64,000 nucleotides of DNA. Source: Octopus vulgaris (lineage: Eukaryota). The DNA is taken from contig OX597833.1 of the NCBI GenBank assembly GCA_951406725.2, positions 5,890,001 to 5,954,000 on the forward strand, in the 5' to 3' direction. The notes under the pieces were generated by a model. The model was not told the origin of the DNA. It searched no databases and saw nothing but the letters and a program-made list of their open reading frames with translations. Positions 5,962-62,654 of this stretch are shown here, piece after piece; within the stretch, counting starts at the first letter, position 1; every line of letters begins with the position of its first letter. A program made the position numbers and the translations under genes.

Positions 5962-7141
5962 CTTTTTTTTTTCTTCTTTCAAATTTGCTTCTATTTCTTG
6001 CCGAGTGTCTTCCCGACTCCTAGGGCAAAGAAACTCATAGCATACATTGGTAGGCCATTAAACCAAACTCAGTAGTCCGTTAATTTTTTTTTTTATTTTT
6101 TTTTTTAAGTTAAATTAAAATACACGAGCAGCAACAGTTCTCACATCGACAATGCACTTCTCAATACGTGTGATGTACCAGTTAAGACAATCTTTTGCAC
6201 TTCTTGCAGGGATGGTAAGCCAGGGATCATTCTCATATAATTTTCGGTTCCCTTCTTGATCATTCCTAGTGCTCCTACGATCACTGGTATTGTAACCGCC
6301 TTGAGATGCCACATTTTCTCAATTTCAATGAGTAGGTCTTTATATTTTCTGAGCTTGTCAAACTCTTTCGCTGAGATATTATGATCACAGGGGATGCTCA
6401 TGTCGATCAATAAGCAAACTTTATTGTTTTGGTCTTTCACAACAATATCTGGTTTATTGGCCTTGATGGTTCGGTCTGTATGTACTGGAAAGTCCCACAG
6501 AATGGTTACATTTTCTCCTTCAGTTACAGCCTCAGGGTGGTGATTATACCACTTGTCGGCAGTTTTGATATTGTAATGCCGACTTATTAGCCAGTGTAGA
6601 TATTGGCCAACTCTGTCATGTCTTAATTTATACTCCACTGGTGCTAAGACTTTACATCCAGAGATTAGGTGGTCCACTGTTTCAATCATGTCGTTGCAGA
6701 ATCGGCATTTTGGGTCTGCTCCATTTTTCATCACATTGGCCTGGTAGTTCCGGGTTAATAGGCTTTGATCTTGAGCAGCCAGGATGAAACCTTCGCTCTC
6801 TGCTTTTAGCCCTGAGCTCCTTAGCCACTGATGGGTTTGCTTCTGGTCAACATCAGCTTGTTTGCTGCGGGTCACATATTTGCCGTGCAGAGGTTTCTCC
6901 TCCCACCTATCAGCCAATTGCTCGTGCGCTTTCTTCATTGCCATCATTTTCACCTTCTTTGCAACAATAGTTGCCGTACTTCCCTCGGGTTGTTCAGTTT
7001 GGGTATCCTGCACGAGATCAATAGCAAATCTTTTGCTTTCCTTTATGATAGAATGAAGCTTCTTTCGTCTCTCGTGATTTTCCACGAGCTTTAGCATCCA
7101 GTCATTCGATATTTCGAGATATTTGGCCAGTCCAATTGTGG

Positions 7142-7142
<1 letters not shown>
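5962..7142 (-). mobile_element. 5'-truncated Dong/R4-clade non-LTR retrotransposon with CCHC finger and RLE endonuclease; ORF 6141-7097 open
   Basis: LAAQDQSLLTRNY, CRFC..ETVDHLISGC, RHDRV, KPDIV..LLIDMSIP..KY.DL, PVIVGALG. Flanked on both sides by (TTA)n. Confidence 0.92.
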
Positions 7143-13299: not shown

Positions 13300-13800
13300 G
13301 GCGTAATGGTGTGACTAATGTAGCAGAGAACTAATATGATACACAAGTTTCAATGTAAACATGAAATGTATAAACTTTATAACTCTGTTACACGCGAAGA
13401 AACGTCAGAACAACACTTTGCCATAGGTTAGTCATGTATTCACAATGGAACACCATAACATAGAATATATTAAACGAAATATAATTATAAGGGGAAAATA
13501 GCAATATTTGGCAACACTACAATTTTATAATTCCAAAAAAAAAAAAAAGAAGAATGAGAAAATAACTACTAAAAATTCACTGGTAGCAATATATAAGTCA
13601 AACATCAAAACCCTGAAATATTCGATGAGTTCTACCAGGACTTCATCACTGCTAATTTCGAAATGCAGTGAACAGAATTTTATCAGTTATACCAGTGTCC
13701 CAACAATCATTTCTGAGCTACCGAAAAGCATGTGTACACCACGCCATTACTGACAACATTTCATTCTGACGATGAGGCAGTTAAGGGTTTGAAACGTTGC
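13300..13800 (+). pseudogene. Possible degenerate Penelope GIY-YIG region followed by a decayed hammerhead-like motif
   Basis: TNMIHKFQC-like and LLISKC-like peptides, and CTGACGA...GAAAC at 13766-13795. Weak. Confidence 0.3.
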
Positions 13801-13976
13801 TTGGTTGTGGATTTAGAACAATTACGAAACATCCTAAAGAATATATTAAACTCGAACGTAATTGTGTCTTTGATATGTACGCATGTTTGCCTGCCTGTCT
13901 GTATGTATGTATTTACAGAAAAAAATTCATCAAAAAGTGGCAGCATATTAAATACCTTTAAAGGTTAAAATTATTA

Positions 13977-14343
13977 ACAACTTATGAACAAGGGCCCAAG
14001 AAAATTATTTCCATGCCAATATGCTGATAACAGACTTTTAAATCGTCAATTTCCACATATTATTATATACCCACTACAGAAATACGTTGTGCTGAAATTA
14101 TATATTTCTTATTCGTATTTTCTACTGAAGAGGGAAAAATCTATGAGATTAATTCCGAAATTGATTCAATATAGAAATAACGAACGTTTTTAAAAAAAAT
14201 TCTGTTGGCTGGCTTTCCTCGATATCAGCACAACGTACTTCTGTAGTGGGTATATAATAATATGTGGAAATTGACGATTTAAAAGTCTGTTATCAGCATA
14301 TTGGCATGGAAATAATTTTTATTTGCCCTTGTTTATAAGTTGT
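13977..14343. repeat. Long inverted repeat (arms about 13977-14095 and 14225-14343)
   Basis: Arms are near-perfect reverse complements (..CCATGCCAATATGCTGATAACAGACTTTTAAATCG..). Abuts (TA)n. Confidence 0.92.
14118..14177 (+). ncRNA. Putative minimal type-I hammerhead ribozyme
   Basis: TTTCTA-CTGAAGA-GGGAA..TTCC-GAA-ATTGATTCAAT-A-TAGAAA. All three stems and the core are present, and the triplet is AUA. Confidence 0.75.
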
Positions 14344-14366
14344 ATGTATATATATATATATAAATG

Positions 14367-14418
<52 letters not shown>

Positions 14419-14558: not shown

Positions 14559-14610
<52 letters not shown>

Positions 14611-14614
<4 letters not shown>

Positions 14615-14908
14615 TAGTCTTAGAGACAGAACCACCCTCAACTCAATCAACATCGAAAGATATTATACCCGAGCGAGCCATAAAATATTAAATATGATAC
14701 TTACTATATCTGTTCAGAATCCCATACTTTCCATTTTAAAGACAACGCGTGTTTCTTGACAGTATGTCGGTATTGTTGAGATATAAGGTCTCTAGTTTCA
14801 ATACTAAGATAAAGTAAGTATTATACTTAATTTTTTATAGCTCGGTCGAGTATAATATCTTTCAATGTTAATTGAGTTGAGGATGGTTCTCTCTCTAAAA
14901 CTACTTTT
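14611..14908. repeat. Inverted repeat (about 100-bp arms) embedded in (TA)n
   Basis: 14611-14711 is the reverse complement of about 14807-14906 with scattered mismatches. Confidence 0.85.
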
Positions 14909-15002
14909 ATATATATATAAATAATATATTGAGAGAAGTTCACTTCAGCACCTTTAATTTGAATGTCTCATTCCTGTGGACTTGTAATTAATCTTCCCTA
15001 AT

Positions 15003-48066: not shown

Positions 48067-48147
48067 ACAAGCGCTCATATGTTCGTATGCATGTGTAAAA
48101 TCGTATTTCTATTCCTAAATTAATTGTTTCTATTTTGTTTCTTTTAG

Positions 48148-49321
48148 GTGAATTTGGAGACGAGGAAAGTATGCTGGCCAAAAGAGGTGCTGAACAGACA
48201 GATCCCCAATTAGATTCCAAACTTGACCTCTCCAGAGACTTCCATAAACCACGTTATCGCCCCTATAAACAAAACAGTTCGCAGGCACCGAAAAAAACCT
48301 TGGAAATGGCGCCGATCGAACCGCACCAAAATGAAAACACCAGCAAAAAACCGTCCCGCCGTCACGTGACTAAACTATCACGTGGCCCAAGTCAAAATAT
48401 TCCGGATGAAAGAATTTCACCCGGAAAGAGTGAAATCAGTCGACGAGAGAGAAGACAGTGGAACAAGCGCTCGAACTCTTTGTTTTCTCCTCACGTGACT
48501 AATCTGTACCCGTTTGAGACGATTGATGTGAGTAATAGCAGCAACGCCGGAAGCCTTAGCAACGCCAGCAGCCTTAGCAACGACCTGCCCAATGGCACTG
48601 CTGAAGCTAGAATGTCGGATAATGCTGCTCTGGACAGGAGAAAACTCCATATTCAAAACCGTCGCAGGAACGGTCAAAAAGCCGTGGAATCCTCGATAAG
48701 TTCCAGAGGGGTTTATCATTTAAGCAGTCCACGGACTTCAGAGAAAAGTTATCATTCTAGCAAAACCTCTGAGTTTCATTCTAAACGTCTTCAACGAGAA
48801 CGTTCCAATGATCTGGAAAACAACCGAAGCCTATATATTAGCTCCCGGAACAGTACTCACTCGGAAGCGTTGACCGATGATTACGGTATGAGCCTTAGAG
48901 ACGACGATGTCGACGTTTTGACAAAGGATGACATGAAAGACAAAAAGGCCCACTATAATAACAGTGATTTCAAATTAGAGAGCCGAGGATCGGACTCTTA
49001 TTTCAATGGTTATGATAAGAGTTATAGCAGCGACATGAACAGCAACAACAATAATTATTATAATGATATTGATAGTGATAGTGATAGATATGCAAGCACG
49101 AGATTGGCTCACAATTCAAAAGATAAAAGGTTCGAATTAGGGAACTTGCATGACGCTAGTCCGTTGAGAAGTTTGATGAAATGGGAATACGAAGATCTGT
49201 ATGGCGGGAAACGACCCAACTCGGTTCGTCCAGCTCGGCCAAAATCAGCCGTGGTCAGTGCTCGGACACATGCGATGACCATAACGGACAGCGACGACAG
49301 TTCCCTCGATGGGGACATAGA
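48148..49321 (+). CDS. Internal coding exon of an uncharacterised Ser/Arg/Asp/Asn-rich protein
   Basis: About 1.17-kb non-repetitive open frame. Acceptor TTTGTTTCTTTTAG|G (phase 1) and donor GA|GTAAGT (phase 2). Confidence 0.85.
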
Positions 49322-49416
49322 GTAAGTATTCTTTTGGGTTTTACAACTGAACGGACGCATGTGTATGTGTGTATGTGTGCATGCGTGTATGTATATGTAT
49401 GTAAACATATACATGT

Positions 49417-51063: not shown

Positions 51064-51151
51064 GGTAAAGAAAGAAAAAAAGAAAGAAGTATATATATTT
51101 TTTCTTGTTTTAAAATGCTTTCTCATAAAAGATTTTTGAAATATTTTTCAG

Positions 51152-51830
51152 GTATGTTGACTTGGAGGAACTCTCTGACGGGGAAGACGCAATTGTTCTT
51201 ATCGACCCCGAATCAATGAAACACCAGTCGAATAATTCCTGGAAAGACGACGATTCCGATGTCCGGCGATCCGTCTCCACGAAAGCATCTCAAGAAATCT
51301 CCCCGCGGCAAAATCCAAGATTTGTCAATAAAATTTCCCAAGAGAGTAAACGATTGCGAAGTAACGGCTCGGAAAGCGGGAAACCGGATACAAACTGGCT
51401 TTTTGCGAACAAGAATAGCGATTCCAGCAAAGAACGTCGCGAAAAACGGAGGGAGTCCTTTATGGATCCCACAGATCCGTCTGAGTTTAAACTGAACGGA
51501 CAGATTCATAAACTTAATATGAAAAAAGACATGTTTGACTTATCTTCTTTCAAAGACAATCTGTCTCTGCCGAGGGAAGCATCTCTCACTTCTTCGTTTC
51601 AGAAATACAACAGAGACAGACTCTTGTCCGACAGTCTGAGACAAAACAATGCCGTGTTGAAAACGCAAAAACACCAATCAGATCGATCCGATATGATTCG
51701 ATTTGAAAAGAAAGAACTTCTCCCTCGTCGCAGTTCCCACCCACCTCTACCGAGACGGTTGAAACCATTATTCAGGAATATGCCTGACGATGGAGAAGGC
51801 AACGAACTGAACGAGAATGGTTTGGCTTAG
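51152..51830 (+). CDS. Terminal coding exon of the same gene
   Basis: Acceptor ATATTTTTCAG|G completes the codon GA+G, giving ..DGDIE-YVDLEELSDGED... Stop TAG at 51828-51830. Confidence 0.85.
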
Positions 51831-61353: not shown

Positions 61354-62352
61354 TTATTCGGGTGGTGTGCTCAGAATGGAACAGTATCCTAAAACGTTGG
61401 ACTCATCGTAGCAATTATTTTTCCAGTCGTATCGTCGTTCACTGATTGTTCTGTGAACGAAGTTATTCCTGTCATCATCTTCGCTCGACAAAATCTCCAT
61501 CTCAAGGTTGCAATCCAGTGCCGGTGGCTGGTTCTCCGCATTGCAATAGATCATTAAACCAATAACATTGGCCACAACTTGAAGAAAGAAAGCCATCAAA
61601 GATGTGATGCCGATCAAGAATAACTGCCAATTTCCAAAAGCGTTTCGTATTATTTCGCTACAGCCATTTATATTCCAAACCATATTTTCATTCATCATTT
61701 TAGTCAAAGTTTTCGAGAAAGCATTTTTACTACACACGTCAATGTCACGGTTGGAACAGCAACTAAATGGTGGGATAATAACTTTCTTTTTGTAGGTGTT
61801 CTGGGTCCGATGAGATAATAAAATCCAGTCGGAATATCCTACATCCCCACAACAGCTGTAGTATATCTGCAATTTATCGAGGGTATTTTTCATAGAAGAA
61901 TCCACACTATAATGCTTCATGGCGTATACAAGAATACTGCCGGTATTTTCCATGATGTACAAGCGATGAATGATACAGACCACGAAAATCGCCAAATATC
62001 CAAGGCTGAACGTGAGGCAGAGTAAAACGAAAACGAAATACTGCTTCGTCTTTTTCTTGTTTGAATCCAAATTCGAAGTTTTCGGTATCACTGAAAACCC
62101 CCAGAGTAAAAGACAGCTATTCACGAAATTAAATCCTATAATAAAGCTAGCTGTTTGTACAAGAGAGAGCGGCGGCTGCGGGTCACTGTTACGAAACAAG
62201 GGTTCGAATTTATCAAGAGATACAAGGAGGAGATTCACACTAACCGCAATGATGACGATACTGTAGATCAATAGAATAAGGCATAGGATGATATAGATGT
62301 AAACGATCGCATATTTCCTGTTGGCCTGGGTTTTTTTCTGCTTTGGACACAT
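61354..62352 (-). CDS. Intronless tetraspanin, peripherin-2/ROM1 (RDS)-like, 332 aa
   Basis: Four hydrophobic TM segments. The large loop has AMKHY..LDKLQIYYSCCG..GYSDW, PFSCC, C and NGC. ATG at 62352 has A at -3 and an in-frame upstream TAA. Confidence 0.88.
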   Translation of the reverse strand: MCPKQKKTQANRKYAIVYIYIILCLILLIYSIVIIAVSVNLLLVSLDKFEPLFRNSDPQPPLSLVQTASFIIGFNFVNSCLLLWGFSVIPKTSNLDSNKKKTKQYFVFVLLCLTFSLGYLAIFVVCIIHRLYIMENTGSILVYAMKHYSVDSSMKNTLDKLQIYYSCCGDVGYSDWILLSHRTQNTYKKKVIIPPFSCCSNRDIDVCSKNAFSKTLTKMMNENMVWNINGCSEIIRNAFGNWQLFLIGITSLMAFFLQVVANVIGLMIYCNAENQPPALDCNLEMEILSSEDDDRNNFVHRTISERRYDWKNNCYDESNVLGYCSILSTPPE

Positions 62353-62654
62353 CGTCGACAAAATTCTCCAAGCGAAAAACTGGTTTTAATTATCGCTGTT
62401 TTTCGTTTTGTCGTTCACAATTGTGTTTCTATGTCTCTGCTTTTGTTTTCTCTCATTATGTCCGTTAATGATTTGGCAGCGTTTTGCTGACGTACAATCG
62501 AATACTGACACGAAGTCACTGCCTCCTCTTCCGCCTCCTCCTCCTCGTCGTCGACGTCGTCCTTTTACAGACTTCTATTGTGTTAGTTTCATTCTCTCTT
62601 TCTACACTTCTCTCTCTCTCTCTCTCTCACCTCTCTCTCTCCCCTCACTTATCC

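Follow-up and report, generated by a model that had tools for sequence, protein, structure and literature searches.

The hammerhead-bearing insert in the window (the whole 64-kb stretch of Octopus vulgaris DNA that was analysed, from a repeat-rich genome of 2.8 Gb) is very probably a decayed, two-piece copy of an animal non-LTR retrozyme, one whose entry into a TA-rich microsatellite was likely the work of an enzyme from a Penelope-like element (PLE), with the inverted repeat around it likely a by-product of that insertion. Seen directly are a type I hammerhead fold, its covariation among homologs, and a dispersed repeat family with tandem and partial-tandem copies. The 5' ends of these copies are scattered, their 3' ends fall at two fixed sites with (TA)n beyond, and copies paired head-to-head carry one of each end. 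More generally, the repeat family to which this copy belongs, as judged from its genomic sequence, works like, and most likely belongs to, the animal non-LTR retrozymes, and its insertions are of PLE type.

Table 1. Features of the hammerhead fold and of the two-piece insert in the window (positions are those of the 64-kb stretch)
Feature	Position	Strand	Basis or remark
Type I hammerhead fold	14112-14184	+	sequence reading, covariation, descriptor scan
Stem I TTTCTA/TAGAAA	14119-14124 / 14172-14177	+	sequence reading
Distal stem I extension TTCGT/ACGAA	14112-14116 / 14180-14184	+	covaries
Core CTGAAGA	14125-14131	+	sequence reading
Core GAAA	14157-14160	+	sequence reading
Two-part stem II	14132-14156	+	base 14132-14135/14153-14156, inner AATCT 14138-14142/AGATT 14146-14150
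Palindromic stem III ATTGA-T-TCAAT	14160-14170	+	sequence reading
Triplet AUA	14169-14171	+	sequence reading
Inverted copy of the repeat unit, 5'-truncated	13912-14098	-	unit positions ~295-484
Direct copy of the ~506-nt unit, 5'-truncated	14099-14343	+	unit positions ~171-419
Left inverted-repeat arm	13977-14098	.	portion of the inverted copy common to the direct copy
Right inverted-repeat arm	14222-14343	.	native unit sequence downstream of the hammerhead
(TATG)n left flank	13900-13911	.	likely part of the target microsatellite
(TA)n right flank	14344-14412	.	likely part of the target microsatellite

In the fold (Table 1), the CUGANGA core, the GAAA strand, and an NUH triplet follow one another in type I order, and the AUA triplet places the predicted cut after A14171. 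Stem I, the core, the inner part of stem II, stem III, and the AUA triplet had all been read by a first-pass annotation from the letters, and each is present where that reading put it. At the base of stem II, the helix stands but its proposed pairing of GGAA, which is off by one base, does not, the register shared by the family being GGGA/TTCC with one G-U pair, which at this copy is an A>G change relative to most family copies. Likewise, the fold had been called complete, and though every element named is there, the distal extension of stem I was overlooked, and it too covaries. A descriptor scan gave one match in the 64-kb window, as against any match at all in 1 of 200 locally shuffled windows; an Rfam search returned no hammerhead match, either at the gathering score or at E<=10. 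With regard to a possible tertiary contact between loop 1 and loop 2, the unpaired UAA in stem I and the AA in the internal loop of stem II are both conserved. By prediction, the hammerhead fold has an energy of -10.7 kcal/mol, which is above the minimum free energy of -14.2 kcal/mol. Taken as a candidate from sequence, the fold at 14112-14184 is supported as a real, conserved hammerhead.

The loop sequence belongs to a dispersed repeat, here called family A, for which there were 1139 first-look candidates; among the 40 that were scored, the other full-length copies are 90-93% identical. The exact core pattern of family A has 561 matches in the genome and none in the control, and the window copy is one among well over a thousand genomic copies. 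The unit, as defined from a head-to-tail dimer of 1018 nt (locus L027), is ~506 nt long, non-coding (longest ATG ORF of 66 aa), and low in GC (about 30% G+C at conserved columns). A sister family B (915 pattern matches versus 5 in the control, with at least one of the 100 listed matches looking like chance) has a unit of 509 nt that is 66% identical to that of family A over 382 columns, and a small family C, recognised in 6 of the 19 matches of a further pattern (L133, L136, and L141-L144), has different flanking sequence. For the comparisons below, the family A set consists of 53 distinct loci (7 overlapping ones of 60 were dropped) and the family B set of 27 (3 of 30 dropped). The unit junction is crossed in 28/53 family A and 14/27 family B loci, indicating a head-to-tail tandem or partial tandem, and no long tandem arrays were seen in these loci, which were viewed with 1.5-kb flanks only. 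Folded as a circle, the unit has a predicted energy of -108.5, compared with -92.7 +/- 6.4 for 30 crude shuffles, a weak difference. We also observed single inserts in which hammerhead variants from distinct subtypes of family B are combined (e.g., L102 1346-1973 and G000:C1:225508450-225508970), a hint that two RNA templates were used or that the template was switched. A family of this sort in this host was not found in the literature by title or abstract, and supplementary repeat libraries may list it.

Conservation of the fold was gauged with a hand-picked alignment (A2) of 37 sequences, 36 of them distinct, made up of L077, 16 rows of family A, and 20 of the 30 loci that the family B search had supplied; from another alignment (A1), 5 of the 55 hammerhead rows had been removed beforehand for deletions or junctions. 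In the covariation alignment, 95.8% of the 756 cells are paired and 14 of the 21 pairs have two-sided changes, with slid registers reaching at most 46.4%. All helices covary between families A and B, though this covariation represents few independent events (two to three families plus subfamilies). The first-pass annotation had offered loss of the core and stems in homologous copies as grounds for rejecting it, and here it survives, the stems being conserved. Since the core letters were fixed by the search patterns, core invariance in the pattern-selected loci is circular; in a set selected by similarity, the exact core pattern is found in 24 of 29 distinct loci.

Helix III deserves separate attention. 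Its arms read TTGA-T-TCAA in family A, TCGG-T-CCGA in family B, and TCAC-T-GTGA in family C, such that the innermost pair covaries across the three families as A-U, G-C, and C-G. In a monomer, a loop of 1 nt would be too short for this pair to form; as it nevertheless stays complementary in three forms, the suggestion from the earlier reading that the 1-nt loop III calls for a dimer gains support. The predicted energies point the same way, with monomer hairpins at +1.8, 0.0, and +0.8 kcal/mol and self-duplexes at -6.7, -13.9, and -10.1 kcal/mol for the three families (-6.7 being that of the window's). Dimer action also agrees with what is put forward in PMC4209133 and PMC7229834. From the covariation and the modelled energies, then, the hammerhead likely acts as a dimer, with a monomer having a 4-bp helix III and a 3-nt loop as a possible alternative. 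We can also imagine, as a proposal that we think unlikely, that helix III, besides switching catalysis, signals RNA dimerisation. It would then pair two retrozyme RNAs, or two units of one RNA, for a dimeric Penelope enzyme that primes one of them at each of the two 3' end sites described below, from the two ends of a double-strand cut. If true, the covarying innermost pair would prevent cross-pairing between families, and the rule of one end of each kind per pair (21/23) would be the genomic footprint of asymmetric two-ended priming. Our literature searches did not find this idea.

At the window locus, the two arms are complementary at 115 of 122 positions (94%) and enclose a loop of 123 nt. 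An inverted repeat of 119 bp, near-perfect, had been reported earlier, and such a repeat is indeed present (113/119 for that span), its full extent being 122 nt at 94%. The left copy, which is inverted, extends 65 nt past the inverted repeat, and its 3' end falls ~20 nt short of one fixed end of the unit (B) and abuts (TATG)n; the direct copy terminates at the other fixed end (A), after which comes (TA)n. Because the left side is an inverted, 5'-truncated second copy, the insert amounts to two truncated copies joined 5'-to-5', with their 3' ends facing outward into TA-rich microsatellite. Only one hammerhead is carried by this insert. An 'active' retrozyme copy is described by Li, Clavereau & Pollet 2026 (bioRxiv 10.64898/2026.07.22.740005) as one in which two successive units each have a complete hammerhead, and the window copy, lacking this, is a derivative. 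With its one hammerhead, a dimer would require a second molecule, and the copy is probably a dead end. Contigs from three presumed RNA runs and one unlabelled run cover the repeat with mixed identity, which is uninformative on this locus, and the unique flank at 13700-13861 is uncovered in the contigs of the three presumed RNA runs. Nearby, at 14595-14923 and between (TA)n runs, the window holds a second inverted repeat (117-nt arms, 88%, 95-nt loop), built from a ~200-nt self-complementary dispersed repeat that has 419 candidates and copies of 88-95%; no hammerhead was detected there by the descriptor, and it is possibly a MITE or another head-to-head insert.

Across the loci, head-to-head pairs occur at 26/53 in family A and 17/27 in family B. 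The 5' ends are scattered (89 family A and 50 family B segments), and none of them, 0/89 and 0/50, lies within 5 nt of the predicted cut site. The 3' ends, by comparison, cluster at two fixed positions, A near unit position 415 (30/89 segments) and B near 506 (27/89), and 49 of these 57 are then followed by TA-rich DNA. Among the pairs with assignable ends, one A end and one B end are combined in 10/12 for family A (p=0.019) and 11/11 for family B (p=0.0005); assignment failed in 14/26 and 6/17 pairs, respectively (20/43 in total), and the site-B window for family B is wide (unit 78-130). Thus, 5' truncation, partial tandems, and an adjacent inverted 5'-truncated copy, as are typical of PLE-type insertion, are all found, as are the microsatellite target and two alternative 3' ends, albeit at a longer spacing.

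These features suggest the following scheme. Tandem source copies would be transcribed, and their hammerheads, dimerised by way of the palindromic helix III, would cut and so release unit-length RNA that may circularise. A PLE RT/GIY-YIG complex would then cut both strands of (TA)n, and each DNA end would prime reverse transcription at an internal site of the RNA, one end using A and the other B. The two cDNAs would halt early and be joined 5'-to-5' as a head-to-head insert, with the template RNA presumed to be uncut or re-ligated at the ribozyme site. At the window locus, the copy primed at A would have reached slightly beyond the hammerhead and its partner would have stopped short of it, leaving the fold in the loop. 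When purified, the PLE of Anolis cuts the two strands and extends each of them, has two internal RT starts, and does not need hammerhead cleavage (PMC11167929), and inverted 5'-truncated copies, partial tandems, and a (TA)n bias are given as standard for PLEs (PMC8557442). Alternatively, head-to-head PLE inversions have been explained by self-priming on an antisense template (PMC3846280). Speaking against our scheme are the left 3' end of the window copy, which is not at site B, a unit (506-509 nt) that exceeds the 150-450 bp described for retrozymes, although that range is no strict limit, and a distance between A and B (~90-110 nt) that exceeds the 30-40 bp PLE tail.

As for the source of such an enzyme, the PLE sequences of the 38 loci compared yielded no autonomous element whose terminal repeat matches the unit, and the unit itself has no RT plus GIY-YIG ORF inside it, as an autonomous PLE would. 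Three PLE fragments lie near unit loci (L045, L049, and L124), and at the latter two (TA)n separates fragment from unit. Starting from the GIY-YIG fragment close to L049, we arrived at an intact, very young family of PLEs together with older relatives. The young family (L091-L098, e.g., L095 909-6755), which we take to be Neptune from its Zn-finger-like linker, is ~5.8 kb in length and 97.6-99.8% identical between copies, and has intact RT-GIY-YIG frames of 776-846 aa, an overlapping upstream ORF of ~480 aa, and a simple-repeat-rich 3' UTR of ~1.3 kb. Its inserts include tandem and inverted ones, with one being an inverted pair, and they end in (TA)n at 2 of 8 loci; blastn gave no similarity of the young PLE or its older relatives to the unit. 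As a side observation, a minimal hammerhead-like motif, with GAAACCGGTT, sits at the PLE terminus in L095 (6655-6710) and in 15 older loci of L061-L090. In this motif, TTGACAA/TTGAAAA replaces CTGANGA, a U3-A8 variant as in PMC4209133.

Could the unit then be no more than a pLTR, the terminal repeat belonging to some autonomous PLE, with its copies as truncated ends and no self-propagating retrozyme involved? The 5' truncation and inversion are PLE-like, and our PLE comparison covered one young family and older relatives only, which leave this reading some ground. However, units stand head-to-tail without an intervening ORF, as in the L027 dimer and in the loci with a crossed junction, no PLE ORF is contiguous with the unit at any of 53 family A, 27 family B, and 6 family C loci (86), and the hammerhead has full helices, unlike the minimal form reported for PLE pLTRs in PMC4209133; we accordingly rate this reading as quite improbable. 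We give almost no credence to a MITE, or a foldback DNA element, whose terminal inverted repeats of ~120 bp would enclose a hammerhead. The long inverted arms around a short core and the TA flanks are here, but constant terminal inverted repeats are not, in that the position and length of the arms vary by locus and half of the loci have no arms; moreover, the left copy runs beyond the repeat, and tandem units exist.

The first-pass annotation had put the hammerhead in the loop of a transcript that would form a long dsRNA and self-cleave there, giving a nicked duplex that could be a Dicer or ADAR substrate. Read as a design, this would be a locus whose transcript is retained for that role. If transcribed, the arms would indeed be expected to pair (modelled probability of 0.998 at a mid-arm pair, and -201.8 kcal/mol for 13970-14350), and a similar geometry, with an intact hammerhead in the loop, is common to about 13 of the 53 family A loci (11-13, with L018 and L058 doubtful) and 3 of the 27 in family B. 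Yet the hammerhead is buried wholly or partly within the arms at 10/53 and 10/27 loci, and 27/53 family A loci have no inversion, so the placement varies as loop, arms, or no repeat because of where the 5' truncations fell. Nor are the arms unusually alike, as 10/36 and 13/43 other copies are as close to an arm as the opposite arm is, or closer. On whether the arms of a pair come from one template or two, identity between them in nearly all pairs equals or exceeds the median identity to other copies, yet is often lower than that to the three best, which would fit either case. Helix III has a predicted probability of just 0.007 in the hairpin transcript. For an ADAR footprint in reinserted copies, there is no A>G excess (A>G at 10.8 versus T>C at 13.0 per 1000). 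Given that the inverted repeat is also a head-to-head, PLE-type layout, we find it very improbable that dsRNA for Dicer or ADAR is the reason for the structure, though incidental editing of such a hairpin may occur.

With the retrozyme reading preferred, the locus itself is of minor importance, being one decayed copy among more than 1000 of a known class. The family is of modest use, as it extends retrozymes to an octopus host and supplies natural covariation favouring dimeric hammerhead action. Moreover, because each arm uses a different one of its two fixed ends, the unexplained origin of head-to-head inversions in PLEs could be put to the test with the in vitro PLE system already published. 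Elsewhere in the window, a 343-aa open frame on the minus strand (61354-62385) has a tetraspanin domain (PF00335, E 2e-13) with a near-complete profile in one frame, and two long Ser/Arg-rich open frames on the plus strand (48099-49325 and 51129-51830), both without a Pfam match, are likely exons of one host gene. Also on the minus strand, a 333-aa frame (6141-7142) with a weak zf-RVT match likely derives from the 3' portion of some non-LTR retrotransposon.

Among known systems, EN+ PLEs and their non-autonomous derivatives, as portrayed in PMC8557442, PMC3846280, and PMC11167929, share with the octopus family the 5' truncation, partial tandems, an adjacent inverted copy that is itself 5'-truncated, (TA)n as the target, a choice between two 3' ends, and copies uncut at the hammerhead. 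In contrast to these, the octopus unit is without an ORF, has the longer end spacing noted above, and carries a full rather than a minimal hammerhead. The minimal hammerheads of PLEs (Cervera & de la Pena 2014, PMC4209133) show the same palindromic helix III/loop 3 with proposed dimer action, and opposite-strand pairs of them 100-700 bp apart have been noted there. The octopus helix III, however, is long (4 bp in the monomer, and 10 bp plus U-U in the dimer), and helix I continues distally beyond an internal loop. Set against the animal non-LTR retrozymes (Cervera & de la Pena 2020, PMC7229834; Li, Clavereau & Pollet 2026), the octopus unit is longer, its copies are mostly dispersed partial tandems with head-to-head inversions, helix III consists of 5-bp palindromic arms around one U, and stem II is in two parts. 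The octopus family is known from genomic sequence, and a pLTR sequence link was not found among the PLEs compared. Nevertheless, it is with these retrozymes, whose amphibian members cleave in a dimer-dependent manner and whose mussel member is molluscan, that the octopus family shares a low-GC, non-coding unit bearing a single type I hammerhead, the occurrence of copies both in tandem and solo, and coexistence with autonomous PLEs.
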